A stretch of 64,000 nt of DNA from NCBI GenBank assembly GCA_902798965.1, contig CADBYS010000005.1:23640-87639 (forward strand), read 5' to 3'. The notes below the pieces were generated by a model, which saw nothing but the letters and a program-made list of their open reading frames with translations, had not been told where the DNA came from and ran no database searches. Shown piece by piece: positions 6,928-29,522 of the stretch. Source of the stretch: an uncultured Bacteroidales bacterium. GTDB lineage: Bacteria; Bacteroidota; Bacteroidia; Bacteroidales; Paludibacteraceae. The position numbers were made by a program, and so were the translations under genes. The number at the start of each line of letters is the position of its first letter. The stretch's first letter is position 1.

Positions 6928-6970
6928 AAAGGATGTTGATTACTCAACTAAAGGATGTTGATTACTCAAC
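6928..6970. repeat. Perfect 21-nt unit repeated in tandem (period 22) across the stop codon of the 903-aa gene
   Basis: aaaggatgttgattactcaac occurs at 6928-6948 and again at 6950-6970. The second copy contains the stop codon (6962-6964) and the last two codons. Confidence 0.9.
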
Positions 6971-9673
6971 AATTTGACCCATCATGTTGTAGGTCTTGCC
7001 GTCCTTAATGATCAGCACTTGACCGTTGCGGATCACCTTCTGAACCTCGAGAACGTAGATGTCTTCAATAGCTGTCGACGGGTTCGGATCGGTACCCTCA
7101 ACTACCAACGCCTTCTTTGCCGGAACGATGATTTCGTTCTTGTCGGTCGGAATTGCAAACACAGCCATCAGCATAGATGAAGAATTACTATAAGCTCCAC
7201 TATTCGAAACAGAAGCAACGAGGTTACCAGCATAGTCGAAACTCATTGACGAAATCATGCTATAGCCACAGTCGATAGTTGCCACTTTCTCAAGTGTAAC
7301 AGTAGTGTCGGCTGCATAGGTCGGTTTGAGAACAAGAATATTCTTGTCACCATCAGGAATATAAATCAAGCCTTCCTTATCAATTACCAAGCCACCGCCA
7401 AGTGAACCATTGATAAATGATGCATCATCAGAAACATACTTATTAACGCCATCATGGCTGTAAGCCATCAACGAATATGCCGCACTATTATTGGAACCCT
7501 TTGCACGGTTTTGGCAGAGCCAAATAGCCTTATCGGTTACACCTATCGAGAAGACGCCACCTGCATTGTGCTGAAGAGCAATCTTCTTGGAGGGTGCTGT
7601 ATTCCACTGGTGAAGGATAGAGCCATCCTCCTGACCAACGTTGTAAACCATCAAGCCATTAGCATAATCGGGCATATCCTCGTCAATAGTATACAGTTTA
7701 GTTTCTGCTCCTTCGCCATGAATATAAGCGCACGGTGACGAGCCACCAACGTCAATACCATTGTTTGTCCACAGACCACTCGTGCCACGTGTTCCTTGAT
7801 AGAACTGCGAGCACTTTGTCAAATCTGCCGGATCCACGACATACACACCGGAGTGTCCCTGATCTGTATAGTCCGGCAACCAAAGCATACCAGTTGCATC
7901 AATGGAGAATTTCTGCGAGCCCCAGGTTGCTGTTTCGCCTAACAAATTCAAACCTCCATTGAGAGTGTAATCAGGATTGTAAACATACAAGCCGCCAGTA
8001 GCGCTACCGGTACGGTTGGTGTAGTAGATATAACCAAAGTAGTCGGACTCAGGAATTGCATTGATAACAGCCTGACCACGACCTGTCATGGCAGTTGCAG
8101 CATGTACACAAGCAAACTCTGCTACAGGGTTAGCCTTCAGTTCAACAGCCCAAGTAAGACCAGTGCCTTGAGGAATTTCACTCTTAGCAAGAGTTACCTC
8201 GTTAAGACCTTGTATAGGATCATCTACTGCTACTCGTCCTTGCAGAACACCATCTTTGTAGAACAACAGATTAGCCTCGTTACCAGCGATGTTTACATAG
8301 TACGAGAAGTTGTAGTCATCACCGTTAGCCACAACGTTCAAGCCATAAGCATTGATACGACGGTCAGCGGGAACAACGGGCTCAACATACTCCTCAGCGG
8401 AGATGAAGTAAACCTGTACATTATCGTTATAAACTGCGACAACACCGGTGATATCATATGTTTTCTCGGTATCAAAAGCGATATTTGCATTGAAGCTGTT
8501 ACGCAAAATGAAGGTCTGCTCACCGATGGTAGCATCCATATTCTTGTTGTCCGGGAACGAAGCAGCAGAAACGCTCACGTTTTTCAGGACAACGTACTTG
8601 TTCATATCAGCAGCTACCGGAGCAGCAGTCATCTCAACAGGAGCGGGAGCTTCGCCGGCAGTAGCTTCTACTGCAGCAACTTGCTCAGCGCTCGGCTTAA
8701 CCTCATACAAGCCACTATAGATATCAACCTTGCCTTCTACGCCGGAAAGAACATCACCGGCTGCCCATTCAGCAACATCAGGCAAATAGAGCAACATTGC
8801 GCCCGACGCATCCTTAACATAAACGTTCTTGCCGTTTACGTAAGTTACGGTTAAGTCGTTCAGCAGAACTTCATCGTTCTTAGCCATGTTGTAAACCTCA
8901 GCGCAAGTCTTCGGCATGATTCGAGCTGCATAGATGCAACCTTGGTGCCAGCCTTCACCGCCTTGGCCATCCGGACGGAAGTAAACATTGTATTTACCGG
9001 CTTCGGTAATTGTGTAGTTGTTGTCCATGCCATCGGGATACCAAGCATCAACCTCGCCGTCAATAACCTTGCGAACTTTGAACTGATCGTTAGCAGCAAA
9101 TGTTGTCTTCAGCACATACTCACCTGCAGAAGCGGCATTGGCAGCCAACTTATAACCGGTAGCCGGTGTCCAATTGTTCATCGAGCCAACGAGATAGTAC
9201 TCTACAACGGGCTCTGCGGGAGTGCCATCGGTAACATAGGTTGCATCCCAAACTACGAAACGACGAGCAGTACCACTTGATAATGTGATAGTTGTTTCGG
9301 CTGTAATGTTGGAGAGAGTCAACTCTTTAACAAAATCAGCCTCGCTACCGCTCAACGTATAGTCAGTACCACTACCAGAAATTCCGCTATCAGCGGTAAT
9401 ATCAAGCGTTTGGGCATCTTGACCGGGAATAGAAACATTCACATTACCAGCCTTACCACTCCATGCTGCAATATGGAACGTTAATTTTGTTGCGCCGGCA
9501 CCAAACGTAATGGTCATAGCACCATTAGCGCTGCTCGTACCAACCTTGATGGCAGTCTTTGTGTTGACTGTGGCATCATAAGACTTGTCACCGGACTTTG
9601 CCAATGTAGCCTCGGCTGCCATCATGCTCCCTGCAAAGAGCACTGCGGCAAAAAGAGAAAATAGTTTTTTCAT
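6962..9673 (-). CDS. Secreted 903-aa multidomain protein (protein A): N-terminal beta module, CBM-like module, two OB-like modules, Ig plus beta-propeller module, conserved C-terminal tail
   Basis: Signal peptide MKKLFSLFAAVLFAGSMMAAE with no lipobox Cys. YYLVGSMNNWTP..FKV (CBM-like). CAEVYNM..VYVKDASG..GDVLSGVEGKVDIYSGLYEV (OB-like). ESDYFGYIYYTN and FDYAGNLVASV propeller motifs. Tail TAIEDIYVLEVQKVIRNGQVLIIKDGKTYNMMGQIVE-stop. Confidence 0.85.
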   Translation of the reverse strand: MKKLFSLFAAVLFAGSMMAAEATLAKSGDKSYDATVNTKTAIKVGTSSANGAMTITFGAGATKLTFHIAAWSGKAGNVNVSIPGQDAQTLDITADSGISGSGTDYTLSGSEADFVKELTLSNITAETTITLSSGTARRFVVWDATYVTDGTPAEPVVEYYLVGSMNNWTPATGYKLAANAASAGEYVLKTTFAANDQFKVRKVIDGEVDAWYPDGMDNNYTITEAGKYNVYFRPDGQGGEGWHQGCIYAARIMPKTCAEVYNMAKNDEVLLNDLTVTYVNGKNVYVKDASGAMLLYLPDVAEWAAGDVLSGVEGKVDIYSGLYEVKPSAEQVAAVEATAGEAPAPVEMTAAPVAADMNKYVVLKNVSVSAASFPDNKNMDATIGEQTFILRNSFNANIAFDTEKTYDITGVVAVYNDNVQVYFISAEEYVEPVVPADRRINAYGLNVVANGDDYNFSYYVNIAGNEANLLFYKDGVLQGRVAVDDPIQGLNEVTLAKSEIPQGTGLTWAVELKANPVAEFACVHAATAMTGRGQAVINAIPESDYFGYIYYTNRTGSATGGLYVYNPDYTLNGGLNLLGETATWGSQKFSIDATGMLWLPDYTDQGHSGVYVVDPADLTKCSQFYQGTRGTSGLWTNNGIDVGGSSPCAYIHGEGAETKLYTIDEDMPDYANGLMVYNVGQEDGSILHQWNTAPSKKIALQHNAGGVFSIGVTDKAIWLCQNRAKGSNNSAAYSLMAYSHDGVNKYVSDDASFINGSLGGGLVIDKEGLIYIPDGDKNILVLKPTYAADTTVTLEKVATIDCGYSMISSMSFDYAGNLVASVSNSGAYSNSSSMLMAVFAIPTDKNEIIVPAKKALVVEGTDPNPSTAIEDIYVLEVQKVIRNGQVLIIKDGKTYNMMGQIVE

Positions 9674-9735
9674 GATTTGTTTAATTATTGGTTAATAAAG
9701 TATTGAGTTTAACAATTTTTGTTAATTGTTTTCTT

Positions 9736-10143
9736 TGTTCACAGATCAACTCGCTAATTGGCGTTTGACTTCGTTCAAGAAATCTCGAGCGGGCTGCCCG
9801 ATGGTCTTTGCCTCATCCGCAGAGATCTCCGCAATACAGTTGTAATCAGCCTTCTTGCGCAATTGCTCCATTCTATTCAGCAAGATACCATATTGCTTAT
9901 TATCTTACCGGTTAAAACAAACTCTTTACCAAACACCGCTAACATCCCCTCATGAGTCTTCGCGCTAATTTCGTTTGCTACGAGCAATGCGTGTGTAGCG
10001 TGGAAACATGCATAATAATACCTGTTACATGCCGCATCATAGTGCCCCATAGCGACCAACTCGTCCGCCAAGCCCAACATCTGTTCTGCTTTGGCAAGGT
10101 GATGAGCTATCATCTCACGTCTATCTTGATCAGAAAGTTTCAT
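9736..10143 (-). pseudogene. HEPN-domain toxin gene interrupted by a frameshift (HEPN/MNT pair)
   Basis: The frame from 10143 gives 88 aa (..AMGHYDAACNRYYYACFHATHALL..GKEFVLTGKIISNMVSC-stop at 9877). A second reading frame then reads (D)NKQYGILLNRMEQLRKKADYNCIAEISADEAKTIGQPARDFLNEVKRQLAS-stop at 9736-9738, the expected HEPN C-terminal half with the R(x4-6)H-like region. The shift lies within about 9880-9905. Confidence 0.8.
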
Positions 10144-10457
10144 TGCAGTCGCACAGCATCTTGTTGAACATTATGGTAGAACGGCGTGAAGCTGTTCTGT
10201 TTCCACTCTTTCTGCGTGTACATAATCGGATTGATGGACTGACTTAACTTCCAACCAAGTTCCGTAAACGGATATGAGATATGCGCATAATCGTCAGGAG
10301 TAATGGAGTCCTTAGGCAGCAAGACCAGCAGATCCCAATCAGAATCCGGGCGATTGTCGCCCCGAGCGCGCGAACCGTACAAATACAGTTGCGCACCCTC
10401 AGGAATGAGCTCTTTGCCCATTTGCTGAATGCGATATTGTACCTCCTGATTACTCAT
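10140..10457 (-). CDS. Minimal nucleotidyltransferase (MNT) antitoxin of a HEPN/MNT module
   Basis: 105 aa with the Pol-beta superfamily motif LYLYGSRARGDNRPDSDWDLLVLL (GSx10DxD). A 4-nt ATGA overlap joins it to the downstream HEPN frame. Confidence 0.88.
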   Translation of the reverse strand: MSNQEVQYRIQQMGKELIPEGAQLYLYGSRARGDNRPDSDWDLLVLLPKDSITPDDYAHISYPFTELGWKLSQSINPIMYTQKEWKQNSFTPFYHNVQQDAVRLQ

Positions 10458-10475
10458 ATTTCACCATTCACGCTA

Positions 10476-10507
10476 CAAAGTTACAAAAAATTTTTGATAT
10501 TTGCAAA
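10476..10507 (-). promoter_or_regulatory. Promoter of the MNT-HEPN operon, probably reading through into protein A
   Basis: Reverse complement of 10476-10483 is TAACTTTG. Reverse complement of 10504-10507 is TTTG. The spacer is 20 nt. I see no TAnnTTTG box in the 62-nt gap before the protein A start codon. Confidence 0.6.
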
Positions 10508-10758
10508 TTTTTTGGGCACAAAATTGCGAAAAAGTGCAAAATTGTTGAAAAACGACGAAAACGGCAAGTATAGTCAACAAGAATGGGCTTGATAGGTCAA
10601 AAATTATCCAAAAAATCTGTACGGATTCGACGGATCTGACGGATTACATTGTATCTTTTTTACGAACACGGAAAGACACGAAAAGGCACGGAAAAGGCTT
10701 ATAAAGAAGGCACGGAAGGAGGGGAAAAAAGGGGCTAAAAATCGGGCATAGAAAGGGT

Positions 10759-10890
10759 ATAGGCACAAAGAATTGGTAATCAGATAGATAAATGCATGAG
10801 GTTCCTATAAGGTTCCTATAAGCTTTCTATAAGGTTTATGGTTCCCCACATGGGGGATAGTTGGAGGGAAGGCGGGCGGGCTGATCAGAG
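10759..10890 (+). repeat. Dispersed ~135-bp intergenic repeat, copy 1 (partner at 38782-38916)
   Basis: Shared core: ataggcacaa..ggtaatcagatagatRaatgcatgaggttcctataaggttYctataagctttctataagSttTatggtt..gggaaggcgg(c)gggc. About 85% identity by eye, same orientation. Confidence 0.85.
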
Positions 10891-10906
10891 GTCTTGATAG
10901 GAACAA

Positions 10907-10961
10907 TCACCTACTAATCACCTACTAATAACCTACTAACCACCTACTAATTACCTACAAT
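10907..10961 (+). repeat. Five tandem 11-bp units (tcacctactaa consensus)
   Basis: tcacctactaa / tcacctactaa / taacctactaa / ccacctactaa / ttacctacaat, read directly at 10907-10961. Confidence 0.9.
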
Positions 10962-11000
10962 GACCAGGACTGAATAATTTGCTGACATGCGGGATAGCAC

Positions 11001-11033
11001 AAAAAAGGCGGTGCGTCACAAAAACGCACCGCC
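11001..11033 (-). terminator. Rho-independent terminator after protein B
   Basis: ggcggtgcgt (11007-11016) pairs with acgcaccgcc (11024-11033), a 10-bp stem with a 7-nt loop. A6 at 11001-11006 gives U6 after the stem on the minus strand. Confidence 0.8.
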
Positions 11034-11043
11034 AAAACTATTA

Positions 11044-11122: not shown

Positions 11123-11124
11123 CA

Positions 11125-12504
11125 TTATTTGAGTTCTGCGCCGAGCATGTTGTACTCGATGCCATCGCGGAGGATAAGAACCTGACCGTTGCGGATGATC
11201 TTGGTAACCTTAACCTGCTCGATGTTCTCAACTGCTGTAGCCTGATCGGATGCCAAGTCATAACTAACGCTGGCTATTCCGATTTGGTTGTCTTGAGAGC
11301 TGAATGAGATCTTAACAGCGTTGGTTCCGGCGGGAAGGCCGACTTTCTCGATCTCAAAATCGTCGGATGTCAGAGCCGGATCAAAATCAGCATAGTTCTC
11401 ACCGCCATCGGCAGAATACTGAAGTGTAATGGTTTGCGCCTTTGCACCCCACTGCTTGCAAATAAAGCGAACAGCCGTAAAGGAGTTGTTGGCAGCATTA
11501 AGTTTCAGCTCAACATCACCACCCTTCGTTACAGGAACATCGGTGATGGTTCCCGATTGCTTATTTGCCGAAGCAAAAACTACATCAACATCTGCGTCCG
11601 AAATGGTATGCTCGGAATAAGAAGATGTCCAAGACGAGAAATCTTCACTTTGCGAGAAATCAATCGTGTGGTGATATGCGCGCGAAGGAGCATTCACCTT
11701 GATATGAACGGTTACCTCTACCGACTTGTTGTCAGCAGCCGACTGGATTGTGAGGGTTTGTGTAAAGTCGCCCACTTCATCGGTACCGGCAGAGATAGTA
11801 ATGGCATCGCCGCTATTCTCGATGCTACCGGTAGCGCTAAACGGAGCTGTCAAAGCAGAATAGGTAACAGCACCTGTCAAGTTTTCAAAGCTAACTGCAA
11901 CCTGAGCGTCATCCACATCAGCGCCTTGTTCTACAGTACCGAAGTCGATGGATGCGGGATTAGCACTAATAGCCGGAGCTGTAGAAGGCTCGCCGGCATA
12001 TATTACGTCGATTTGATACAAGCAAATATTTTTCTTTGTCGCGCTGGCAAAAGCCAAATTCACTACCAAATCAGCAGACAATGTAACACCCTCCTCAGAA
12101 CTTGCATTAAAGATAAGCGTAGTTTTAGTACTACCTGAAACGCTGCTGGTCGTAGCCGAGAAACTGGTAGAACCACTCGTTACCGTTACTGTGGCTGTGC
12201 TGCTTGAACTACACGCAACTTTTACTTGTTTTACAGTCTTTCCGCTGAAAGAGGATGATGTCCAAGTCATCGAAGTTGCGGTTTTCTTGCTACTACCGAT
12301 TTGGTAGCACTTATCACCATCGTAAGTTTGAATTGAATTACCTTCACAAACTTTCGTTACCGTCCAAGTAGCACCATCTGTTGCACTGAAAGATGTTGTA
12401 GTCTCTTTAGCATCATTGGGGATGTCCATGGTTGATGTCACATCGGCAGCAAACATGCCACCTGCCAAAAGCACAGCAGCGAGAATAGAAAAGATTTTTT
12501 TCAT
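11125..12504 (-). CDS. Secreted 459-aa protein (protein B): two Ser/Thr-rich beta modules flanking an Ig-like domain, conserved C-terminal tail
   Basis: Signal peptide MKKIFSILAAVLLAGGMFAAD. Tail TAVENIEQVKVTKIIRNGQVLILRDGIEYNMLGAELK-stop. No enzyme motif recognised. Confidence 0.8.
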   Translation of the reverse strand: MKKIFSILAAVLLAGGMFAADVTSTMDIPNDAKETTTSFSATDGATWTVTKVCEGNSIQTYDGDKCYQIGSSKKTATSMTWTSSSFSGKTVKQVKVACSSSSTATVTVTSGSTSFSATTSSVSGSTKTTLIFNASSEEGVTLSADLVVNLAFASATKKNICLYQIDVIYAGEPSTAPAISANPASIDFGTVEQGADVDDAQVAVSFENLTGAVTYSALTAPFSATGSIENSGDAITISAGTDEVGDFTQTLTIQSAADNKSVEVTVHIKVNAPSRAYHHTIDFSQSEDFSSWTSSYSEHTISDADVDVVFASANKQSGTITDVPVTKGGDVELKLNAANNSFTAVRFICKQWGAKAQTITLQYSADGGENYADFDPALTSDDFEIEKVGLPAGTNAVKISFSSQDNQIGIASVSYDLASDQATAVENIEQVKVTKIIRNGQVLILRDGIEYNMLGAELK

Positions 12505-12567
12505 GAAAACTGAAAATTTTTAGTTGTTAATGAATATTGGTTTTAATTTCGATTCGTAGTTATGTTG

Positions 12568-13809
12568 TTACTTAACTTCTGCGCCGAGCATGTTGTACTC
12601 AATGCCATCGCGGAGGATGATAACCTGACCGTTGCGAATAAGCTTGGTAACGGGAGCAGCCACGGCAGCATTATCGACAGCGGATGGAACTGCCGAGTAG
12701 GTCAGTTCAGCCCACGTCCAGTTGGCGGTGGTAGGAACGAGCTCCCACTGGCTGTCGCGCGAGAAGAAATCCCACTTGCCGGTGATCGTGCCGGAAACAA
12801 AACCTTCGATCTCCCACTCAGCCGGAACCTCGACACCGGACTTGCTGAAATAAATCTCCAGGTCTTTGTTGTCGGAGGTCTGCTTGTCGATATATATACC
12901 TTTCTTTTGTTGCGAGGAGTTCAGATAGAAACCTGTGATCTTGGCATTGACAAACGTAACGGTTACATCGGTAGTGCCTGCGGGCAGGCTGTCGGCGATC
13001 AGTTCCTCGATAGAGGCGTAGTCGTGCTGCGGTTCAACGGGCGATGTTGCCGGTTCGACGATCACGCAGGTGCAACCTGCTGCGAACTCAGGAGTGGTGT
13101 TGTACTTGGTGAGTTTGCCGGTTACCTTAACGAGGTCGCCTACCTTCGGGGCATTGATCTCGGAATCAATAGTACATTTATATGCTTCGAGAATCTTGCC
13201 GCCATCCACTGCATCCGCCATCCAGAAACTCATGTTATGATATTGCTCGCTATAGGCGTAGGCGATCTCGGTAACATAGCCTTGCACCTGATAGGTAGCG
13301 CCGTTGTTGTACTCCACATTGTTGCCGGAAACGCTCAGGGCAGCGGTGCGCGCCTCGGCACAGGTCATGGTAAGGATTGAATCGTTACCGGGTTGCGGGT
13401 CGATGGTCGTAGAATCCGAGCCTGGAGTAGTACCACCTTCGCCGAGAGTAACTTTGATTTCCGTCAGACGCGCCTGTGATGGCAGATCTGCAATAGAATA
13501 CGATGTTGCGTTAACCGTAACCTCTGAATCCAAGCCGCCTGTTTTGCCACCGGTTGTGGTGAAGTTAATCGTTGTGATCGTAGCAGTAGCCGTGATAGAC
13601 ATAGCTCCGTGAGCATAGCAACGCAGGGATTCATCCGCACAATAGCCTTTGCTATACGTAAAAGTTACACCATCTTTGGTGGCCGAAACCTGACTGCCGG
13701 TATTAGCTGTACCTTGACCGGAAAAATCGTCTTTGGTAAAAGTTACCTCCGTAGCCAACAGACTACCTGCAAAAAGCACGGCAGCGAAAAGGGAAAAGAT
13801 TTTTTTCAT
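12568..13809 (-). CDS. Secreted 413-aa protein (protein C): N-terminal beta module, two OB-fold-like modules, conserved C-terminal tail
   Basis: The ORF track extends to 14001 across the promoter. The real start is MKKIFSLFAAVLFAGSLLA (ATG 13807-13809). YQVQGYVTEIAYAYSEQYHNMSFWMAD..VGDLVKVTGKLTKYNTTPEF (OB-like). Tail SAVDNAAVAAPVTKLIRNGQVIILRDGIEYNMLGAEVK-stop. Confidence 0.8.
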   Translation of the reverse strand: MKKIFSLFAAVLFAGSLLATEVTFTKDDFSGQGTANTGSQVSATKDGVTFTYSKGYCADESLRCYAHGAMSITATATITTINFTTTGGKTGGLDSEVTVNATSYSIADLPSQARLTEIKVTLGEGGTTPGSDSTTIDPQPGNDSILTMTCAEARTAALSVSGNNVEYNNGATYQVQGYVTEIAYAYSEQYHNMSFWMADAVDGGKILEAYKCTIDSEINAPKVGDLVKVTGKLTKYNTTPEFAAGCTCVIVEPATSPVEPQHDYASIEELIADSLPAGTTDVTVTFVNAKITGFYLNSSQQKKGIYIDKQTSDNKDLEIYFSKSGVEVPAEWEIEGFVSGTITGKWDFFSRDSQWELVPTTANWTWAELTYSAVPSAVDNAAVAAPVTKLIRNGQVIILRDGIEYNMLGAEVK

Positions 13810-13876: not shown

Positions 13877-13908
13877 CAAAGGTAGTAAAATATTTTGAAA
13901 TTTGCAAA
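13877..13908 (-). promoter_or_regulatory. Promoter of the protein C - protein B operon
   Basis: Reverse complement of 13877-13884 is TACCTTTG. Reverse complement of 13905-13908 is TTTG. The spacer is 20 nt. The 63-nt C-B gap has no promoter box. Confidence 0.65.
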
Positions 13909-14002: not shown

Positions 14003-14021
14003 CTTGCGATGGGGTTTAATA

Positions 14022-16312: not shown

Positions 16313-16481
16313 GATTGTTAGTATTAGGGGTTAGTTTATTAGTCAAAAATTACCAAAAATTAATCCAAAATTACATTGGACTTATCAGGTCAACAATTAA
16401 AGACAATTAAAATCTATTACAAAGATCAATTATTTGTCAACAACTACCAACAACGCCCAACAACTCCAATGGATTTTCTTG

Positions 16482-20446: not shown

Positions 20447-23400
20447 TTATAAGGTTACTTGCAAGCCAAAACTGTACTGGCGTGTGTAGGGGTAGATACG
20501 TCCCCAACCCATTCCACCGCCTGAACCGGCAGCACTACCCGTTTCGGGGTCGATAGGCAGGTTGCCCAGGTGATCGAACTCACATACATTCTCCAAGCTG
20601 CAGTAGATACGTGCTTTCTGGAAATGTGCCTTTTGCAGAATGTTCTTAGGCAGCGAGTAACCGACGGTTATGTTCTTGAGTCGCAGGTACGACAAGTCGA
20701 GCAAATAACGCGTCTGGGTGAGGAAGTTGAACGATGCAGCGCTGTACTGACCGGGTTGGTTGAGCTCGGTGAGGCGCGGATACCAGGCGTTGGTGTTGGT
20801 AGGAGTCCAGTAGTCAGTCTGGTGGGCATAATACGTACCCTCCGAGAAGTTCCATCCGGGTATCATCATCGTACCGGTAGCCCAGTAGTCGCGTTTGCCT
20901 ACGCCCTGGAAGAAGATATTGAGATCCACACCGTACCAGTCGGCACCAATACGGAAGTTGTACTCGAATCGCGGTGTGGTGTTACCTATACGACGCCAGT
21001 CGCCCGGGTTGGCAGCAGTCTTGTCGCCCCAAGTGATCTGACCATCGCCGTCAAGATCCACGTACTTCACGTCGCCCGGGCCGTATTTGTACTTGTAGCC
21101 CTGGTTCTCGAAGTAGGCTTGCGAAGCGATACCATCTTTCATCGTGCCGTCGGCATTGAAGTCCGACTCCTGGAACAGGCGGTCGGTGGTGAAGCCCCAG
21201 ATCTCGCCTACGATCTTTCCCTCGTAGTTCGAGCCGTCGAGAACCGACAGTGTGGAGCGCGGGTGCTTGGTGATGATAGCCACAGCGTCGGACAAGCCGG
21301 CTGTGAGGTTAAGGCGCAGACCGTTGCTGAACTTATGGTGGTAATCGAGTTGGAGCTCGAAACCGTTGGTAGTCATCTGGGCTGCATTCTCGTAAGGAGC
21401 GGAAGCGCCGTAGGTGGAAGGAGTCTCGGCGCCGCCGGCGATCATTCCGTCGTTGATGCGGCGATACCAATCGAAGGTCAAGCCCAGATCGTCGTTAAAG
21501 AAGCGGAAATCGCAACCTACGTCGTAGGTCTTGATTGTTTCCCAAGTAAAGCCGTTGGCGAGGGCTGTAGGCAGCGAGAAGGTGATCTCGTCCACCTCGT
21601 TGACAATCCAGCCGGAGTTACCGGAGGACATTATGGCGCGGAACATGTTGGCACCTACGTCCTGGTTACCGATCGAACCGTAAGAAGCACGGAGCTTGGC
21701 AAACGACCACCAGGGTTTGAGCGCTTCCCAGAAGTTCTCTTCCGAAGCCACCCAACCTATTGAGCCGGAGGGGAAGAATCCCCAAAGCTTATCTGTCGGG
21801 AAACGGCTGGAGCCATCCACACGGCCGTTGAGCTCGATCAGGTAACGATCCTTGTACGAGTAGTTGGCGCGAGCAAAGAATCCCATCAGTGCCCAGCTGC
21901 TATGTGAACCATAGATGAACGTATCGCCGGTAGCGAGGCTGATCTCGGGTTTCGTCTGGTCGAGCAAGTCACGCTTCTCGGCATTGACGTACTTGTAGTC
22001 ATCATATTCGATGTTGTAACCGCCGAACACGCTGAACTTATGTGCATCGTTCCAGGTGTGCTGGTAACGGAGCACGGCGTTGCCGCTGTGGTGCTGGGTG
22101 CGGTAGTTATACGAGTCGATCTTGTTGCGCGAGGTGGCAGCCCAGTTGTCGGTAAGTGCCAATGTACCTGTCCAGAAGTCCCAGCCGCCAACCGTACCAC
22201 CGCGCTGCACGTAATCGCGCGAGGTGAGGTTGAACGCATAATCCACATCGAGGGTGAAGCCCGGGAGGAAAGTGACAGTAGCACCTATAGCGGCACGCGT
22301 ATAGTCGCGTTGGTCGGTATTCAGGTTTGCCGCTGCCGTTTCGGTGATGGAGTTATGGAAGGGCTTACCCTGGTACGTACCGTACGGCATAATTGCCGGC
22401 CAACGGTAGAGGTAGTACAGCGCGTCGTAGGAAGCCGAGTTGAAGTTGAAGGGCTCAGCCAGGTTCGTGCGGGTGTACATCATTTTGGCGCGTACCTTGA
22501 GCCAGTCGAAGACCTGGGTCTCGAGGTTGGTGTTAACAGAATAACGCTTGTAGCTGTCGCGGTTGACTTTTACCACGCCATTCTGATCGGCATAACCGAG
22601 GCCGATATAGTAGTTCGTCTTGCCGGCAGTGCCGCTGACGTTCAGGTTGTGCTGGTGGGAGAAGCTGTAGTCGTCGACGAACATCTTCGCAGCGTTCCAC
22701 GAGCGGTAGAAGTACGTATCGCCGGCAATGATATCGAAGTCACGGCCGAGCACCATCTCGTCGGAGAGTTCCATATTGCCGTAGGTCTGCTCCCACTGGC
22801 GCATCATATCGATGGCTGCTGCATCCCACACGAGTCCGCATCCTCCCTTGAACATTGTTGTTCCCGGTACACGGCGGTTACGTGCTTCGAGAGCCATCTC
22901 TGCACCGACGTACGACTTGGCTACCTGGGGCAGTACGGTAGGTGCAGCCCAGGAGAAGTTGTTGTTGTACGTAACGTTGAACTTGCCGCTCTCGCCGGCA
23001 CCGTTCTTCGTAGTGATGAGGATGACACCGAAGGCGGCACGTGTACCGTAGATAGAAGCCGAAGCGGCATCCTTGAGCACACTGATGGCGGATATATCCT
23101 CGGCGTTGATGGCAGAGATATCGCTCATCTCCACTCCATCGACCAGGATGAGAGGCACTGCATCGCCTGTCAGCGAACCCGAGAATCCACGGATATGGAA
23201 CTCAGGCGCTTCGCCCAGACGACCGCTGGTGTTCGTAATGGTCAGACCCGGCGTAGCACCTTGCAGACTGTTACCGACATTCGTTATAGGACGGCCATCG
23301 AGTTGATCCTCAACACTGACCGTACCTACGGCGCCTGTGAGGTTTGCCCTGCGCTGCGTGCCGTAGCCTACGACTACAACCTCTTCCAGTGCCTTGGTGT

Positions 23401-23683
23401 CCTCAACAAGTTGCACATTGACGGTTGAACGGTTCTCCACCTTCACCTTGTGGGTGCGGTAGCCGATATAGCTGAACACGAGCACGGCATTGCCGTCGGC
23501 GCTCAGGGTGTAGCGGCCTTCGAAGTCCGTGATGGTACCGGAGGTTGTGCCATCCACCATCACCGACACACCGATCATAGGTTCACCTTGTGCATCGGTG
23601 ACCAGACCGCTCACTTCCACTGCCCGGAGCGTAGCCGAACTCAGCAACGCTACTATGAGCAGGAACAGATAGGATTGTTTCAT
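20447..23683 (-). CDS. SusC/RagA-family TonB-dependent outer-membrane transporter
   Basis: 1078 aa: signal peptide, carboxypeptidase-regulatory-like domain (VSGLVTDAQGEPMIGVSVMVDGTTSGTITDFEGRYTL), plug (VVVVGYGTQRRANLTGAV) and a 22-strand barrel ending ..YSFGLQVTL. No N-terminal STN/anti-sigma signalling domain. Confidence 0.96.
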   Translation of the reverse strand: MKQSYLFLLIVALLSSATLRAVEVSGLVTDAQGEPMIGVSVMVDGTTSGTITDFEGRYTLSADGNAVLVFSYIGYRTHKVKVENRSTVNVQLVEDTKALEEVVVVGYGTQRRANLTGAVGTVSVEDQLDGRPITNVGNSLQGATPGLTITNTSGRLGEAPEFHIRGFSGSLTGDAVPLILVDGVEMSDISAINAEDISAISVLKDAASASIYGTRAAFGVILITTKNGAGESGKFNVTYNNNFSWAAPTVLPQVAKSYVGAEMALEARNRRVPGTTMFKGGCGLVWDAAAIDMMRQWEQTYGNMELSDEMVLGRDFDIIAGDTYFYRSWNAAKMFVDDYSFSHQHNLNVSGTAGKTNYYIGLGYADQNGVVKVNRDSYKRYSVNTNLETQVFDWLKVRAKMMYTRTNLAEPFNFNSASYDALYYLYRWPAIMPYGTYQGKPFHNSITETAAANLNTDQRDYTRAAIGATVTFLPGFTLDVDYAFNLTSRDYVQRGGTVGGWDFWTGTLALTDNWAATSRNKIDSYNYRTQHHSGNAVLRYQHTWNDAHKFSVFGGYNIEYDDYKYVNAEKRDLLDQTKPEISLATGDTFIYGSHSSWALMGFFARANYSYKDRYLIELNGRVDGSSRFPTDKLWGFFPSGSIGWVASEENFWEALKPWWSFAKLRASYGSIGNQDVGANMFRAIMSSGNSGWIVNEVDEITFSLPTALANGFTWETIKTYDVGCDFRFFNDDLGLTFDWYRRINDGMIAGGAETPSTYGASAPYENAAQMTTNGFELQLDYHHKFSNGLRLNLTAGLSDAVAIITKHPRSTLSVLDGSNYEGKIVGEIWGFTTDRLFQESDFNADGTMKDGIASQAYFENQGYKYKYGPGDVKYVDLDGDGQITWGDKTAANPGDWRRIGNTTPRFEYNFRIGADWYGVDLNIFFQGVGKRDYWATGTMMIPGWNFSEGTYYAHQTDYWTPTNTNAWYPRLTELNQPGQYSAASFNFLTQTRYLLDLSYLRLKNITVGYSLPKNILQKAHFQKARIYCSLENVCEFDHLGNLPIDPETGSAAGSGGGMGWGRIYPYTRQYSFGLQVTL

Positions 23684-23724: not shown

Positions 23725-26700
23725 TCAATACTTTACGCCTTGTGCGTTGTAGGTATCGCCGTCGCGGTTGATAAGCAGTTGGCCATCACGGATGGATTTC
23801 GTTACTTGCGATGCGCGGTCATTACTGACGGTGGAAACAGCATCGTCGATAGGCTCGGCGGGCAGCGGCTCGCGGCGAGTGGTGAACGAGTTGTCGAGTT
23901 TCGGCATCGTGAATACCATCAGGTTGTGGTTGGTAGGCGATACGACATACAGGTTACCTGCAGCGTCGAACTCGCAAGCCATGGTCACACACGACTCGGC
24001 ATCTTCGCCGTAGTGAATGAGGTGACGCAGGGTGAGCGTAGGCACGTTCTTGGCGTTGTAGGTTACGCCATATACGGCTATGGTGCTCAGTTCGCGACCG
24101 ATAGCTACCAGATTGCCGTCGGGCGAGACAGCCATACCACCTTGCTCCGAACCGCCGATAGCGGAACCGCAGTTGTAGTCGATCTTGCCACCGGTGATAT
24201 GGATGAGCGAAGGTACGGCTTCCGACGAAGCGTAGCGGTACTGACTCATCCACCAGCCACCACGACCGTCGGGATAAAGCTGACCCGAGCCATTCTGCAT
24301 CTTACCATACTGGTTGTCGTTATATACGATGGACGAGGGCACTTGGTTCCAGGGCAGGGTTGCCGAACCGAGTTTGTACTCGTTGATGCTCGTAGTGATA
24401 GGCGACGAGGCGATATTATGATCCATAGTGTACAGAGTTTTGGCGCTGCCTACACCCGTGAGATAACAGCTCATCACAGGGTTGGTCACCACATCGGCAC
24501 CGTTCTTGATCACGCCGGTTGTCTTGTTACGTTTGCCGGTGAACACCTCGGTAAAGGCTGCTGCGGGGTCAGCAGGGTTCATGATATATACGCCACTGGA
24601 GGTAGCCGTAGCGGAAGGAACAAACACATCGCCATCGGGGGCAACCGACAGACGCGACAGTGCCATCTGATAGCTCTTGCCCTGGTTGTGCGCACCCCAG
24701 GTTACACTGCCTGAATAGGCGTTTGTGCCTTGCGAAGTGATGTCCGTCCAATCGGACGAGAGGACATACACACCTTGTTTGGTGGTACGCATATCGGCAT
24801 TGCCACCCTCGGCATCGGCAACGTAGATACGACCAAAGAACGGGGAGTTGGGTGTCTTATCCACTGCAACACCCATCGGCGTAGCGAAGCTGAAGATAGG
24901 ATCATCGTCGCTGAGTTGTGCAGGGTAGCTGACAGGCTCAGCGGTAACGGTCAGTTCATATACATCGAAATCGGCGGTGTTGAAGGGATTGTCGATCTCA
25001 TGACCACCCATAGCCAACGCACCCAGTTCGGTGGAGCCTAACTCGTTGCCTTCCTTCGAAATCTTCAGGGTGGCAGTCTGAGCGTCGGTGTTCAAGCGGA
25101 AGGTGAACTTACCGTTGTTGAACTGGAGTTCGGAGGCGAAGATGTTCGCCACTTCGGTGATGCTTGATACGAAGTGCTGAATACCCAGACCTTCGGCAAC
25201 TATATACACGTGTATTACATATTTATCTACGTACGCGAACGCGTGTGCACGCGAGGCGTTGCCGCTCATGGCTTGGAACTGCGAGATAGCAGTCTGTGCA
25301 CCCTCGTCGATATCCCAGAGGCGGAAACCTACCTTGTCGTTTTGCACTTCGGGCTTAACCATCAAGTCGTGACCGGCATAACGGAGGAAGCAAGGGATCA
25401 TGCCATTGCTCTCGATGTTCACGTCCTTGTTCGGCATCAAGGTCACGCGGCTTTCGGCATTCAGACCGAGCAGCGTAGCGGATTGTACATCGCCAACAGT
25501 AGGATGATCCTCATCGTAGTTGAGGGAGAGCAGAGCGTTGGCGGTAGTTGTCCAGAGCGTGGCTTTCCAGTGCGGAGCGCTGGCAGCCAAGGTGCCGGTT
25601 ACGTTGCCATCGACCGTGCGTTCAGCCATCAGTTCGACGGAAGTGAACTCGGGATCGAACATATACACTTTCCAACTATTCTCTGCAGCCACACTTGCCA
25701 GGAGGAAGTTATCGGCAGCAAACGCGATATCCGAGAATACTACACCGGGGAGTGCGGGGAGCGTATCGATGGGGTTCATCTGCAGGTCGCGGCGGGTGAG
25801 TGTGCCGTCAGAGGCCAAGGCATATACATAACCTTCGCGGTATAGTACGCGCTTGAACGATTCGGTAGAAGCATGCTCCTCGCCTACCTTGGTGAAACCA
25901 TAATCCGGCAAGAGCAGGGTGCCAAGGTCTTGCTCGGGCTCATCGAAGTCGGGCAGGTCGATGCGGGTATAGCGGAGGAAGAACTTCACACCGGCTATAT
26001 CCTCGGCAGCCACGGTGACCGTTTCGGTCTTGCCAATGTAACCGCCTTTATCGGCGCGAACAGTATAGGTGCCCGGCTCCAGGTCGTAGAAGGCAAAGAT
26101 ACCGTTGTACCAATCATCAGTGATGACCGTATCGAGCGGATTGCCGTCGGCATCGCCGAGGATGACCGTAGCGCCGTTGAGCGGTAGCCACTGGTCGTCG
26201 GTATTGTTGAAATAGTAGAACTTAGGCTGCTCCAGATCGTCGATGGTCTGGTTGCTGCTCTTTACGAAACCGCTGATGCATGCCGTAGCCGGCAGCTGGC
26301 GGTCGAACCACTTGTGGAAGTACTGGAACATGCGCAGGGCTTCCAGGTGGCAATAGTCGTTGTTCATCAAGCGGTGGGTTTCCGGTGCATAGTCATGGAA
26401 ACTACCCTCGGAGAGGTGACCGGGGACAGTGAGGGGGCGTAACACACCCAGACCGGCGAGCGGGTCGGTAGGACTGTCGCCGTAGAACGTTATATCGCCA
26501 CGGATGTACGGCGTAGCACCGCTGCCCCACACGGTAAGCGGGTTCTTGATCTGCACACTGCCCGCCATGGCAGCCATCAAGTTCGAGGGAGCTACTGTAG
26601 GAGCGCCATCCTCGCCGTGGTAAAGCATCAACAGGTAATTGGTGCGCAGATTATGGGCGTTGGAGTGAATACTGAGGAAGTGATCCGCACCAAAGGCGTT

Positions 26701-27531
26701 AGCCTCCTCTGCGATCTCCGACAAGTAGCGGTCGCCGCCCGCCATGATAGCGTTGTACTCCGCCGAGCCGACTTGTACGTTCGGATAATAATCGATATCG
26801 CGTGCGCCGGAGGTATTCTCGGTACGTGAGATCATCACCGTAGCACCGGCAGCCTGGAGCATGTCGTACAAGTACAGCGCCTTGACCAAGTTCGACTTCG
26901 ACTCCCAGTAACCGGCGGGGTTCGTCCACTGTTCGGGTACGGGGATCGTCCAACAACTACGGTCGTTAGCATCGTATCCGCCATGACCCGGGTTGAGGTA
27001 GATCTTGATACCAGCGAGGCCAACTGTTCCGGTCTGCTGTGCTCGGAGGGCAGTGTGAGCGGCGATGCGTGCGCGGTTACGCTGCACCTCTGCCTGGCGG
27101 CGTTCAACGACTTTGTTCTCATACCATATTGCCTCAAAGTCGGTCATCTCGCGATGCATCTTACCGTCGCGGCTTGTGCAGAAATACTCGGCACGGTACT
27201 CGGGGACTTCGTTCGGACCATAATACTCGAGTTTACCGGCAACCATCTCGTTGTCCATCCAGGTGGGTTCGATCATCCAACCCAGACGGCGAACATTCTT
27301 GCCGTTGAGGTCGCAAACATAGGCGCCCTGATAGGCTACATAGTAAGCGATATGCGTGCGGTCGGGGCTGAGACTTACCCAGAAGTAACTGGCATCAGCT
27401 CCGTTGGGGGTGAGGACGGTTTCCTGACCAACCATCTCCACTACGATCTTACAATCGCGCACAAAAACGTTTTGTGCTGCAAGGCTCAGGCTAAACGCCA
27501 TGGCCAAAACAAAGAGAATAGATTTTCTCAT
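23725..27531 (-). CDS. Secreted 1268-aa fusion: PD40-like N-terminus, N-acetylmuramoyl-L-alanine amidase (amidase_3), CarboxypepD_reg-like domain, Ig plus beta-propeller module, conserved C-terminal tail
   Basis: Signal peptide MRKSILFVLAMAFSLSLAAQ. Amidase_3 blocks IKIYLNPGHGGYDANDRS, WESKSNL..GATVMISRT and ADHFLSIHSNAH. GATVILGDADGNPL..YDLEPGTYTVRADKGGY. NSPFFGRIYVADA and FDAAGNLYVVSPTNHNLMVFTMPK. Tail DAVSTVSNDRASQVTKSIRDGQLLINRDGDTYNAQGVKY-stop. Confidence 0.88.
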   Translation of the reverse strand: MRKSILFVLAMAFSLSLAAQNVFVRDCKIVVEMVGQETVLTPNGADASYFWVSLSPDRTHIAYYVAYQGAYVCDLNGKNVRRLGWMIEPTWMDNEMVAGKLEYYGPNEVPEYRAEYFCTSRDGKMHREMTDFEAIWYENKVVERRQAEVQRNRARIAAHTALRAQQTGTVGLAGIKIYLNPGHGGYDANDRSCWTIPVPEQWTNPAGYWESKSNLVKALYLYDMLQAAGATVMISRTENTSGARDIDYYPNVQVGSAEYNAIMAGGDRYLSEIAEEANAFGADHFLSIHSNAHNLRTNYLLMLYHGEDGAPTVAPSNLMAAMAGSVQIKNPLTVWGSGATPYIRGDITFYGDSPTDPLAGLGVLRPLTVPGHLSEGSFHDYAPETHRLMNNDYCHLEALRMFQYFHKWFDRQLPATACISGFVKSSNQTIDDLEQPKFYYFNNTDDQWLPLNGATVILGDADGNPLDTVITDDWYNGIFAFYDLEPGTYTVRADKGGYIGKTETVTVAAEDIAGVKFFLRYTRIDLPDFDEPEQDLGTLLLPDYGFTKVGEEHASTESFKRVLYREGYVYALASDGTLTRRDLQMNPIDTLPALPGVVFSDIAFAADNFLLASVAAENSWKVYMFDPEFTSVELMAERTVDGNVTGTLAASAPHWKATLWTTTANALLSLNYDEDHPTVGDVQSATLLGLNAESRVTLMPNKDVNIESNGMIPCFLRYAGHDLMVKPEVQNDKVGFRLWDIDEGAQTAISQFQAMSGNASRAHAFAYVDKYVIHVYIVAEGLGIQHFVSSITEVANIFASELQFNNGKFTFRLNTDAQTATLKISKEGNELGSTELGALAMGGHEIDNPFNTADFDVYELTVTAEPVSYPAQLSDDDPIFSFATPMGVAVDKTPNSPFFGRIYVADAEGGNADMRTTKQGVYVLSSDWTDITSQGTNAYSGSVTWGAHNQGKSYQMALSRLSVAPDGDVFVPSATATSSGVYIMNPADPAAAFTEVFTGKRNKTTGVIKNGADVVTNPVMSCYLTGVGSAKTLYTMDHNIASSPITTSINEYKLGSATLPWNQVPSSIVYNDNQYGKMQNGSGQLYPDGRGGWWMSQYRYASSEAVPSLIHITGGKIDYNCGSAIGGSEQGGMAVSPDGNLVAIGRELSTIAVYGVTYNAKNVPTLTLRHLIHYGEDAESCVTMACEFDAAGNLYVVSPTNHNLMVFTMPKLDNSFTTRREPLPAEPIDDAVSTVSNDRASQVTKSIRDGQLLINRDGDTYNAQGVKY

Positions 27532-27557
27532 ATTGCGTGTGTTTTATGGTATAAATC

Positions 27558-29522
27558 TTATTGTTTCATCACTTTCTGCCCGTTGACGATGTACAAGCCG
27601 CTATCGAGGCTCTCAACATCATCGCCCATATACACACCGAGCAGCGAATAAACGCCTTGGCGTGCGGGCTGTGCAGTGGTCATATCCAGTGCATCCTCAA
27701 TAGAGTCCTCCAGGGCAATCTCCACAGTGCGCGGTGCGCTCCACACATCGTTGGCGTTCGCCTTGCGGGTCTTGACGCGCCAGTAGTACGTGCCTAAAGG
27801 CAGCGCGGCAATGATATGTCGGGAGGAAGTAGTGAACGAGGGATCAATGGTCTCGTGGGTAAGGATGATATCCTCGAAGTTCGCATCGCGCGCAAGTTGG
27901 AAGAGGTAGCAATCCGCCTGCGGCACAAGATCCCAAGTGAAGGTGAAGGGCACTTTGCGTTTGCCGCCTTCAGCGGGCGTGAGCAGCGTAGCAGCCTGCT
28001 GTTCGGCTTCCGGTTCGCCTAACACGCGCAGCGCGTATTCGTTATTATAGCCGTCGAGCACACTTACGGCAATCTTGTGCGATTCCGTGCTTACCCCTTC
28101 TGGCAAGGTGAACGACTTGCTATAGGTTATACCTAGCAACATCTCTGCTTTGGAGAATATACCAACACGGTTCCGGAAGTTGTTCGGCACGGCATATACG
28201 GCAAAATGCACATCAGCGTCGGCATGGTTCCATGTTACTGTTTGTCCGTTGGCAGCGAGATCGGTGACCATCGTGCGTTCGGGTGCGGGCTTCCAGTTGA
28301 TTGCCGGTGGCAGAGCGTACGAAGCAAACTGCTCCTTGCGGAAAGCTTTACGGAACTTCGAATCAAATACCCACGCCAAGGTGTTGTAGAACACCGAGCC
28401 GGGGGCATTGTCATAGACAGCCACGCGGTTGAGGTCGGTTTGGTTCTGCAACTCGCTAACGGTATAGGCGGCATCGGATTTCTCGTGGTACTTATATACC
28501 GCCATGCTTGAGTAGAACTGCTTGCCGAAGGTATCGGCGAGCCTGCCCCACCACTTGCTGAGCACGGAGTAGTCCTGCCCGCCGCCGATCTTCCAATACA
28601 ACTGCGGGGAGATATAATCCACCGTGCCAGCCTTGAGCCAAGCCACAGGGTCGCAATAGATCTCCTGGTACATATTGCCGCCCGAGATGTTCGGCGGCAG
28701 ACTGATACCTTCCTGATTAGCTACTGTGTAGTTGGTAGTCCATATACCGAACGGCGAAATACCGAAGACCACCCAGGGCTTGACGGCTTGAATGGTATCG
28801 TACACGGCTTTGACCATCTGATTGACATTGTCGCGACGCCAGTCGTGCACGTTCATGTCGGCAGGTTTGTACTTGCGTACGGAAGCCGAGTCCTGATTGG
28901 TAGTACCGCCGTAAGGGTAGAAATAGTCATCGAAGATGATACCGTCGATGTCGTACTTGCTAAGCACATCGCCCACCACATCCTTGATGCGTTGTTTCAC
29001 CTCGGGCAATCCGGGATCAAGAACAATGTTGTTGCTGTAATAGAGCAGCCAGTCGGGATGCGTATTCTCGTAGTTGAGCGGGGTGTCGTTCGCTCCTGTC
29101 CACGATGCACCGGTACGCGAATAGCGGTAGGGATTCATCCACGCATGGCATTCTATGCCGCGCTTATGGCACTCCTCAATGCAGAACTGCAGCGGATCGA
29201 AGCCCGGGTACGTGCCACGGCTCACCTTCATAAAAGAAGACCATGGCTCGTACGCACTATTGTATAACGCGTCGGCACATGGACGGATATGAAAGAAAAC
29301 GGCATTTAACTTGAGCGACTGAATGGAATCGAGCATTCTGATCATTTCCTGCTTCTGAGCGGAAGCGCCGGTAGAGCTTGGCCAATCGATATTATTGACA
29401 GTTGTGAACCACGTGGCACGCATCTCGCGTTTCGGTGCGGAAGCACCCCACAACTGACACAAACTACCCCAAAGCAGCACACCTGCAAGCAGGCATATTC
29501 GATGAGTAAAAGTGGTGTTCAT
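27558..29522 (-). CDS. Glycoside-hydrolase-like family 10 (GHL10, YddW/DigH-type TIM barrel) secreted protein with FN3/Ig-like C-terminal domains and a short T9SS-like tail
   Basis: 654 aa with a signal peptide. Family block REMRATWFTTVNNIDWPS..LNAVFFHIRPCADALYNS..HAWMNPY..DGIIFDDYFYP. C-terminus DSIEDALDMTT..GVYSLLGVYMG..SGLYIVNGQKVMKQ-stop. Confidence 0.85.
   Translation of the reverse strand: MNTTFTHRICLLAGVLLWGSLCQLWGASAPKREMRATWFTTVNNIDWPSSTGASAQKQEMIRMLDSIQSLKLNAVFFHIRPCADALYNSAYEPWSSFMKVSRGTYPGFDPLQFCIEECHKRGIECHAWMNPYRYSRTGASWTGANDTPLNYENTHPDWLLYYSNNIVLDPGLPEVKQRIKDVVGDVLSKYDIDGIIFDDYFYPYGGTTNQDSASVRKYKPADMNVHDWRRDNVNQMVKAVYDTIQAVKPWVVFGISPFGIWTTNYTVANQEGISLPPNISGGNMYQEIYCDPVAWLKAGTVDYISPQLYWKIGGGQDYSVLSKWWGRLADTFGKQFYSSMAVYKYHEKSDAAYTVSELQNQTDLNRVAVYDNAPGSVFYNTLAWVFDSKFRKAFRKEQFASYALPPAINWKPAPERTMVTDLAANGQTVTWNHADADVHFAVYAVPNNFRNRVGIFSKAEMLLGITYSKSFTLPEGVSTESHKIAVSVLDGYNNEYALRVLGEPEAEQQAATLLTPAEGGKRKVPFTFTWDLVPQADCYLFQLARDANFEDIILTHETIDPSFTTSSRHIIAALPLGTYYWRVKTRKANANDVWSAPRTVEIALEDSIEDALDMTTAQPARQGVYSLLGVYMGDDVESLDSGLYIVNGQKVMKQ

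Follow-up and report, generated by a model that had tools for sequence, protein, structure and literature searches.

What does a SusC/SusD locus harvest when its only recognisable enzymes are a putative peptidoglycan amidase and a non-classical hydrolase? The question is raised by a 64,000-nucleotide stretch of DNA, hereafter the window, from an uncultured gut or rumen Bacteroidales bacterium of the Paludibacteraceae (GenBank assembly GCA_902798965.1, contig CADBYS010000005.1, positions 23,640 to 87,639), which carries on its minus strand genes for a GHL10-family protein, an Amidase_3 fusion protein, a SusC/SusD pair and a DUF4623 lipoprotein. An initial annotation of the window had proposed that this locus strips, cuts and imports murein. 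Every computational test that we ran, comprising enzyme homology, active-site residues, fold, gene order and gene neighbours, agreed with such a peptidoglycan-targeting role. We consider it probable that the locus is a peptidoglycan-utilisation SusC/SusD system with the murein of other or dead bacteria as its substrate; the substrate, the cellular location, the order of reactions and the physiological role are all inferred from computational evidence.

The block is composed as follows:

29559-29590, minus strand: putative Bacteroidetes-type promoter, a consensus match with the -33 box TTTG at 29590-29587 and the -7 box TAACTTTG at 29566-29559.
27558-29522, minus strand: GHL10 gene, 654 amino acids (aa).
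23725-27531, minus strand: Amidase_3 fusion gene, 1268 aa.
20447-23683, minus strand: SusC gene.
18615-20363, minus strand: SusD gene.
16596-18389, minus strand: DUF4623 lipoprotein gene, 597 aa.

Coordinates and lengths of the open reading frames (ORFs), including that of GHL10, agree with the five-gene layout, strand and spacing described initially, with successive intergenic gaps of 26, 41, 83 and 225 nucleotides (nt). A single promoter had been assigned to the block. Its two boxes, which are separated by 20 nt and place the -7 element 36 nt upstream of the GHL10 ATG, can be read directly in the sequence as a match to the consensus, and a pattern scan of the gaps from GHL10 to DUF4623 yielded no further exact TAnnTTTG box; the boxes at 27314, 26094 and 17741 are intragenic. 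No internal terminator-like hairpin of any strength was found in the five-gene block. With the exception of a linked regulator, the locus passes the structural tests for a polysaccharide utilisation locus (PUL): the susC-like and susD-like genes are adjacent and co-oriented with a gap of 83 nt, and a carbohydrate-active enzyme, the GHL10 protein (PF02638), is encoded in the same operon. As the initial annotation had stated, no classical glycoside hydrolase (GH) or polysaccharide lyase (PL) family was detected by Pfam in the locus proteins. The order of the genes is more than chance, because it recurs in dozens of species-level genomes.

Is the first of the two enzymes a peptidoglycan amidase? 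The predicted secreted fusion (23725-27531, minus strand) runs from a PD40-like N-domain through a long helix, an Amidase_3 domain, a transthyretin-like domain and tandem beta-propellers to a 25-aa tail, and its domains were placed as follows:

27142-27474, minus strand: PD40-like N-domain, approximately aa 20-130 (tblastn with a separate PD40 protein, 36% identity, E = 2e-20).
26302-27024, minus strand: Amidase_3 domain, predicted to cleave between N-acetylmuramic acid (MurNAc) and L-Ala, approximately aa 170-410 (Pfam, invariant residues, Foldseek).
25969-26289, minus strand: transthyretin-like (CarboxypepD_reg) domain, approximately aa 415-521 (PF13620, E = 6e-10; beta-sandwich at aa 417-521 in the model).
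23872-25914, minus strand: tandem beta-propeller region, approximately aa 540-1220 (AlphaFold2 pLDDT 91.5).

The Amidase_3 profile match is weak and partial (PF01520, 35.7 bits against a cut-off of 27, E = 1e-8, positions 1-91 of 174). Structure prediction and Foldseek were needed because sequence searches of the PDB gave no match for the entire fusion (phmmer) and a marginal one, to 3ne8 only (E = 0.057), for the isolated amidase region. The AlphaFold2 model of aa 1-540 (pLDDT 84.5, pTM 0.86) placed the amidase part closest to AmiC2 (5emi, target TM 0.84), CwlV (1jwq) and 4rn7 (0.82), at a probability of 1.00, with Rv3717, LytH and AmiA/B among the further matches; M14 carboxypeptidases were a much poorer match to the same model (TM ~0.25). 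The motifs NPGHGG, WESKSN, SIHSNA and LSEGSF are readable in the translation, and the zinc ligands H183, E210 and H289 as well as the catalytic E375, assigned by motif position and fold and not by coordinate superposition, are invariant in 46 homologues of 50-81% identity. The initial annotation had called a MurNAc-L-Ala amidase domain and had made its idea dependent on the zinc ligands. This call, weak by profile though above the cut-off, passed the residue and the fold tests, as the model resembles known MurNAc-L-Ala amidases and the H/E/H ligands plus the catalytic glutamate are kept, judged by motif position and fold. Going by the model, the domain looks catalytically intact, with the MurNAc-L-Ala bond as its predicted target. 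In the secondary structure predicted between H289 and E375, only the canonical strand-helix-strand is present, which suggests that the domain lacks the autoinhibitory helix found in AmiA/B/C. The architecture of the fusion recurs in more than 1500 homologues. The propeller region gave generic tandem WD-type propellers in Foldseek and no functional clue; by blastp, its second half is homologous to the propellers of two further proteins of the window, of 658 and 903 aa, which are described below.

The second enzyme was assigned more easily. The GHL10 protein matches PF02638 over almost the entire profile (E = 1e-68, 232 bits, positions 1-305 of 311). The signal peptide is followed by a TIM-barrel catalytic domain (aa 31-385) and by Ig-like C-terminal domains, and the protein ends in a tail of 35 aa. 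Its catalytic domain is 39% identical to that of Cwp19 of Clostridioides difficile (PDB 5oq2, E = 3e-80), the closest solved homologue, and the protein is 38% identical to DigH (YddW) of Escherichia coli (E = 2e-78), so that the profile and both homologies uphold the YddW/DigH-like assignment made at the outset. Cwp19 is an experimentally demonstrated peptidoglycan lytic transglycosylase (PMC6016235), and DigH is a hydrolase specific for denuded glycans (PMC12288456). Thirteen residues have been proposed for the active site of Cwp19, including W36, W127, R132, D195, D196, Y197, S250, Q295 and Y297 (PMC5765458). Nine of the thirteen are kept in the window protein; the four changes are Q77H, G328S, F367Y and S368N, and therefore it cannot be predicted whether the enzyme works as a lytic transglycosylase or as a hydrolase. 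In a set of 55 sequences, made up of 53 locus-linked proteins, the window protein and DigH, residues W128, R133, D198, D199, Y200, S256, Q307 and Y309 (numbering of the window protein) are invariant. The protein thus looks like an active secreted enzyme that would cut peptidoglycan glycan strands, and a preference for denuded strands may be suspected from the adjacent amidase only. Public calls of the same gene (L084, 196-1974; L085, 1999-3777) start at an internal methionine and give 592 aa, so that the signal peptide is lost together with PKREMRATW, a conserved strand alignable with Cwp19 and DigH; the 654-aa version starting at window position 29522 is the better gene call. NCBIfam provided no name for the GHL10 protein, the fusion or the DUF4623 lipoprotein.

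Of the importer proteins, SusC matches TIGR04056 (859 bits) and contains CarbopepD_reg_2, Plug and barrel domains; its Pfam/NCBIfam domain set includes no STN domain, as noted initially. Among its nearest solved structures are the glycan-importing SusC homologues 8aa4 and 5t3r. SusD (PF07980, E = 3e-34; PF14322) shows a lipoprotein cysteine in its signal peptide. PDB searches with SusC and SusD did not reveal the transported substrate. The third component (PF15416, E = 3e-57; lipobox ...MTGC|KDPVDP) has a solved but uncharacterised homologue, 4ftd, and is a candidate surface glycan-binding protein always encoded next to SusD.

Does the same set of genes occur elsewhere? In a scan of one genome per species, an amidase relative was encoded in 192 species-level genomes. 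ORFs were called and clustered and gene order was mapped for 82 loci; 57 of these, at 41% identity or more, form a closer set, in which order counts use the loci with enough flank. The carriers are mostly metagenome-assembled genomes of Paludibacteraceae and other Bacteroidales from rumen and gut, and further include Dysgonomonadaceae, Prevotellaceae, Muribaculaceae, Porphyromonadaceae and Bacteroides nordii JCM 12987 (L046). In the closer set, the GHL10 gene closely precedes that of the amidase in 46 of the 49 loci with adequate flank, and SusC lies downstream of the amidase in 39 of 43. The DUF4623 gene follows SusD in 31 of the 57, many loci being cut by the flank limit, and GHL10, SusC, SusD and DUF4623 are all present in 29. 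A PD40 partner, fused or separate, was detected in all 82 loci as well as in the window; in many species it is a separate gene of 280-305 aa directly upstream of the amidase.

The genes adjoining these loci point in the same direction. In 25 of the 57 closer loci, a gene for a GH20 hexosaminidase (PF00728, E = 3e-79) is present in divergent orientation. Among the loci in which DNA past DUF4623 is visible, an exo-beta-N-acetylmuramidase of the NamZ type (PF07075/PF20732) is encoded in L002/L003, L015 and L028. In L002/L003, NamZ is followed by a sodium-solute symporter (PF00474) of the superfamily that contains MurT of Tannerella forsythia. NamZ enzymes work on peptide-free peptidoglycan glycans and are specific for terminal MurNAc.

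A distant branch of amidases (32-35% identity, ~800 aa, with a type IX secretion system (T9SS) domain; loci L063-L082, L086 and L087) occurs in Muribaculaceae, Porphyromonadaceae and Odoribacter. These loci are without SusC/SusD; their core consists of one or two NAGPA phosphodiester-glycosidase genes followed by two tandem PD40-amidase pairs, and in about eight of 20 loci a BcrAD/BadFG kinase-like gene (MurK of T. forsythia belongs to this family), a gene for a Golvesin_C protein and a GT2 gene come next. By eye only, the N-terminus of one such Golvesin_C protein of ~1000 aa (L074, 15104-18097; IWQSHGYYFEP...VEDLYTQ...LENAGAYVMSPRERD) resembles the first Amidase_3/M14 metal-ligand motifs. No Tannerella-named protein was found among the best 120 matches of a search seeded with a Porphyromonadaceae-type 800-aa amidase.

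Where would the enzymes act? The locus proteins carry signal peptides, and a lipobox cysteine is present only in SusD and the DUF4623 protein. At one aligned position, the fusion orthologues end in a T9SS type-A domain (PF18962), in a 25-aa tail (consensus K.IRNGQ.LI.R.G..YN..G) or in a 35-aa tail (consensus GIY..GQYLG....LP.G.YI.NGKKVIK), and the tail types swap between GHL10 and amidase across species. The tails of the window are located as follows:

27558-27665: 35-aa tail of GHL10.
23728-23811: 25-aa tail of the Amidase_3 fusion.
14336-14420: 25-aa tail of the 658-aa protein.
12568-12650: 25-aa tail of a 413-aa protein.
11125-11210: 25-aa tail of a 459-aa protein.
6962-7045: 25-aa tail of the 903-aa protein.

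Neither tail type was found in the other ORFs of 100 aa or more across the 64 kb. The short tails may be shortened or alternative surface-sorting signals. Read in this way, they would place the enzymes outside the cell, which argues against a role at the organism's own septum; this export is deduced from the T9SS domains of orthologues. The amidase orthologue of B. nordii JCM 12987 (L046, 3259-6921) ends in a typical T9SS type-A sorting sequence (...LNSGIYALLVKTSEGITNKRILKQ). Bacteroides is usually considered to lack type IX secretion.

The other four proteins with the 25-aa tail are encoded downstream of the DUF4623 gene, where the ORFs agree with the initial description of four secreted proteins on the same strand:

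14336-16312, minus strand: 658-aa secreted propeller protein with a 25-aa tail, with its own -7 box at 16366-16373.
12568-13809, minus strand: 413-aa secreted protein with a 25-aa tail, -7 box at 13877-13884, no significant Pfam match.
11125-12504, minus strand: 459-aa secreted protein with a 25-aa tail, with segments common to the neighbouring proteins.
6962-9673, minus strand: 903-aa secreted protein with a 25-aa tail, N-terminal domains, a DUF5689-like segment and a C-terminal propeller.

The second of these is contained in a 477-aa ORF with an upstream GTG start but more likely begins at the ATG at 13809. Judging by the boxes at 16366-16373 and 13877-13884, the 658-aa and 413-aa genes may each have their own promoter, and the sole strong terminator-like hairpin between 11 and 30 kb lies at 11033-11007, after the 459-aa gene. 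The 658-aa protein is 34-37% identical to a stand-alone propeller protein encoded between amidase and SusC in other loci, its counterpart in L009 being located after DUF4623, and aa 438-903 of the 903-aa protein are 27-29% identical to a propeller protein of ~480 aa upstream of GHL10 in many loci. Because they have conserved counterparts in other loci, these two proteins are, judging by sequence, accessory parts of the same system. Membership of the 413-aa and 459-aa proteins is uncertain; segments of the former, at the N-terminus and in the tail, recur in the 459-aa and 903-aa proteins. The candidate reading of all four downstream proteins as core parts was rejected: only the 658-aa and 903-aa proteins have counterparts elsewhere, and the 413-aa and 459-aa proteins share little besides the tail. 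A nucleotidyltransferase (PF01909) and HEPN (PF05168) gene pair of the toxin-antitoxin type (9877-10457, minus strand, -7 box 10476-10483) sits between the 459-aa and 903-aa genes and splits the latter from the others.

Taken in sequence, the components suggest the following pathway. GHL10, the amidase fusion and the propeller proteins would be exported to the cell surface or into the medium by type IX secretion or a related system reading the C-terminal tails. The Amidase_3 domain would cleave the MurNAc-L-Ala bond and release soluble, peptide-free strands of alternating N-acetylglucosamine (GlcNAc) and MurNAc, (GlcNAc-MurNAc)n, together with free peptides; the amidase alone would solubilise the sacculus because all cross-links run through peptides. 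The DigH/Cwp19-like GHL10 enzyme would then cut the denuded strands to oligosaccharides, to be captured by SusD and the DUF4623 lipoprotein and imported by SusC. Periplasmic finishing would fall to a GH20 hexosaminidase and a NamZ exo-muramidase, whose genes adjoin the operon in sister species and probably lie at other sites in this genome, after which MurNAc and GlcNAc would enter the cell via a MurT-like symporter, to be catabolised or used in building the wall. A broader proposal goes beyond the single genome, namely that this is a widespread peptidoglycan utilisation locus of gut, rumen and termite-gut Bacteroidales, in which a surface amidase acts first, GHL10 trims and SusC/SusD/DUF4623 imports, which would supply the outer-membrane stage missing from the Tannerella scavenging pathway, and in which a new family of 25-35-residue C-terminal tails can replace the canonical T9SS domain; stated in this full form, we think it may hold just as well as fail.

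Several observations weigh against peptidoglycan utilisation. No linked HTCS (hybrid two-component system), SusR or ECF (extracytoplasmic function)/anti-sigma regulator was found by Pfam among most of the larger ORFs of the 64-kb window, in line with the initial annotation, which had reported the same absence. RagA peptide importers are also among the solved relatives of SusC, and from sequence we cannot tell whether its cargo would be glycan oligomers or the released peptides. NamZ linkage was seen in three or four loci only, which is explained by the fact that the 10-kb flanks usually stop at DUF4623, and tblastn revealed no NamZ, GH20 or MurK-like gene in the window; likewise, MurT, MurQ and AmpG, for which no separate query was made, were absent from the Pfam annotation of the scanned window ORFs. 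The tails of the window proteins do not match the Pfam/NCBIfam T9SS domain (PF18962/TIGR04183) even at E <= 10. Finally, the closest relatives of all, L001 and L006 (76-77% identity), encode GHL10 and the amidase without adjacent SusC/SusD, and therefore the enzyme pair can exist without the importer.

This last observation would also suit a different purpose, interbacterial attack, in which the secreted enzymes lyse mainly Gram-positive neighbours and uptake of the debris by SusC/SusD is secondary. Both proteins are predicted to be exported lytic enzymes, Cwp19 itself causes cell lysis (PMC6016235), and binding to target cells could be a task of the large propeller scaffolds. We nevertheless regard attack as an unlikely primary role, since the enzyme genes are co-oriented and tightly spaced with those of a nutrient importer in 39 of 43 species and the neighbouring periplasmic exo-glycosidases, GH20 and NamZ, make sense only for consumption. 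Moreover, no immunity-like gene is evident, and Gram-negative neighbours would be shielded by their outer membrane. Attack and scavenging are compatible and do not exclude each other.

Might the substrate be another amino-sugar polymer, such as poly-GlcNAc, a chitin-like polymer, a capsule or a wall-linked glycan, with the amidase-like domain serving as a binding module or cleaving another amide bond? The GHL10 fold resembles the C-terminal domain of PgaB and other TIM-barrel hydrolases, and a starch-active GHL10 protein of Deinococcus has been reported (PMC9967864), but peptidoglycan is the substrate of both of the nearest characterised GHL10 enzymes. Similarly, GH20 enzymes act on many GlcNAc glycans, whereas NamZ is specific for terminal MurNAc. 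The distant amidase relatives adjoin NAGPA phosphodiester glycosidases; however, the invariance of the four catalytic residues throughout the amidase family argues for catalysis, and all Amidase_3 structures matched are peptidoglycan amidases. In view of these data, another polymer appears quite improbable. Housekeeping of the organism's own septal wall, with the SusC/SusD genes adjacent by accident, draws on the pairing of AmiA/B/C with DigH in E. coli as the known physiological context of the GHL10 family and on the closest relatives without an adjacent transporter, yet it is very improbable given that the T9SS domains of orthologues take the proteins out of the periplasm, that the proteins reach 1200-1700 aa with propeller scaffolds, that Pfam detected no AMIN or SPOR targeting domain, that the modelled segment between H289 and E375, read from predicted secondary structure, has no extra helix where AmiA/B/C carry the autoinhibitory one, and that the SusC/SusD/DUF4623 linkage is kept in ~90% of species.

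How does a peptidoglycan-utilisation locus of this kind compare with known systems? A full-text literature search yielded, within the literature searched, no description of a locus combining Amidase_3, GHL10 and SusC/SusD, or of a "peptidoglycan PUL". The ingredients are already known, that is, the PUL paradigm, Amidase_3, GHL10 and NamZ-based salvage. What we did not find described is their combination in a conserved SusC/SusD operon that has only an amidase and a non-classical hydrolase as enzymes and carries unrecognised tails.

The closest parallel is T. forsythia, a member of the same order, which grows on intact peptidoglycan and whose extracts show amidase and glycan-cleaving activities; its amidase was called "so far unidentified", and no outer-membrane importer was named. 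Its scavenging pathway (Tanf_08345-08385) comprises LytB, AmpG, NamZ1, MurT, MurK and MurQ. The order of events would be the same in both cases: foreign peptidoglycan is stripped of its peptides, the glycans are processed by NamZ, and the products are taken up. Orthologous loci of the window operon likewise contain NamZ and a symporter of the MurT superfamily, and the kinase, Golvesin_C and GT2 genes of the distant amidase branch echo the kinase, "xanthan lyase" and glycosyltransferase genes of T. forsythia, compared by gene kind only. The two systems differ in that the published pathway is without an identified amidase or outer-membrane importer, whereas the window locus encodes those outer steps and none of the periplasmic or cytoplasmic ones.

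In E. coli, the same chemistries occur in the same order, Amidase_3 enzymes (AmiA/B/C) making the denuded glycans that the GHL10 enzyme DigH degrades (PMC12288456). There, however, the enzymes work in the periplasm on the septum of the cell itself and have no linked importer, whereas those of the window bear export signals and large propeller scaffolds and belong to an operon with SusC/SusD. Cwp19 of C. difficile shares the catalytic domain and nine of 13 proposed active-site residues with the window GHL10 but is an autolysin that CWB2 repeats anchor in the wall of a Gram-positive bacterium. The amiE-nagZ-namZ-murQRP operon of Bacillus subtilis is likewise dedicated, its amidase, hexosaminidase and NamZ digesting peptidoglycan before MurNAc is imported; in contrast to the window locus, its enzymes are exo-acting and serve a Gram-positive cell with uptake by a phosphotransferase system, no outer-membrane step and no GHL10. 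With classical PULs (Sus, the levan and dextran utilisomes), the locus shares the adjacent SusC/SusD pair and an additional surface lipoprotein, as well as surface enzymes encoded in the same orientation and only one promoter, upstream of the block. It departs from them in having no classical GH or PL, no HTCS, SusR or ECF regulator and no STN domain, in using an amidase as one of its two enzymes, and in secreting its enzymes with C-terminal tails and not as lipoproteins.

The remainder of the window adds little to the argument. The initial annotation had also cited flanking genes of peptidoglycan-associated families. The PD40/TPR protein stands, as Pfam places TPR and PD40 domains at 29722-31155, but the LysM outer membrane protein does not, having no Pfam support at 31571-32914 (minus strand); that LysM reading was rejected, since the sole match is a weak one to OMP_b-brl (E = 0.013). 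As the TPR/PD40 gene is conserved in few loci only and LysM is unconfirmed, the argument from flanking genes is weak. Otherwise the window contains housekeeping genes (pta-ackA, alpha-amylase, gyrB, kdsA, mreBCD-pbp2-rodA). The elongasome operon mreB-mreC-(mreD)-PBP2-rodA lies at 52569-58300, and therefore the organism builds a wall of its own. Two tandem deoxynucleoside kinase genes (4055-5483) and a gene for a XerD-like tyrosine recombinase (3095-4030) were also observed.

Dense communities such as those of the gut and the rumen contain a very large pool of carbon and nitrogen in the form of peptidoglycan, and we know of no established route by which this polymer crosses the outer membrane of Bacteroidota. 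The locus family provides concrete candidate genes for the unnamed amidase and outer-membrane importer steps of Tannerella, and with B. nordii JCM 12987 (L046) there is a cultured carrier usable for genetics. In addition, loci that lack classical glycoside hydrolases, and are thus "enzyme-less" to pipelines based on carbohydrate-active enzymes, may be functional PULs. If the proposed function is true, it would fill the outer-membrane step of peptidoglycan scavenging in this phylum, with amidase-first solubilisation of the sacculus as a simple and distinctive strategy, and it would bear on how gut bacteria shape the muropeptide pool that reaches the NOD receptors of the host.

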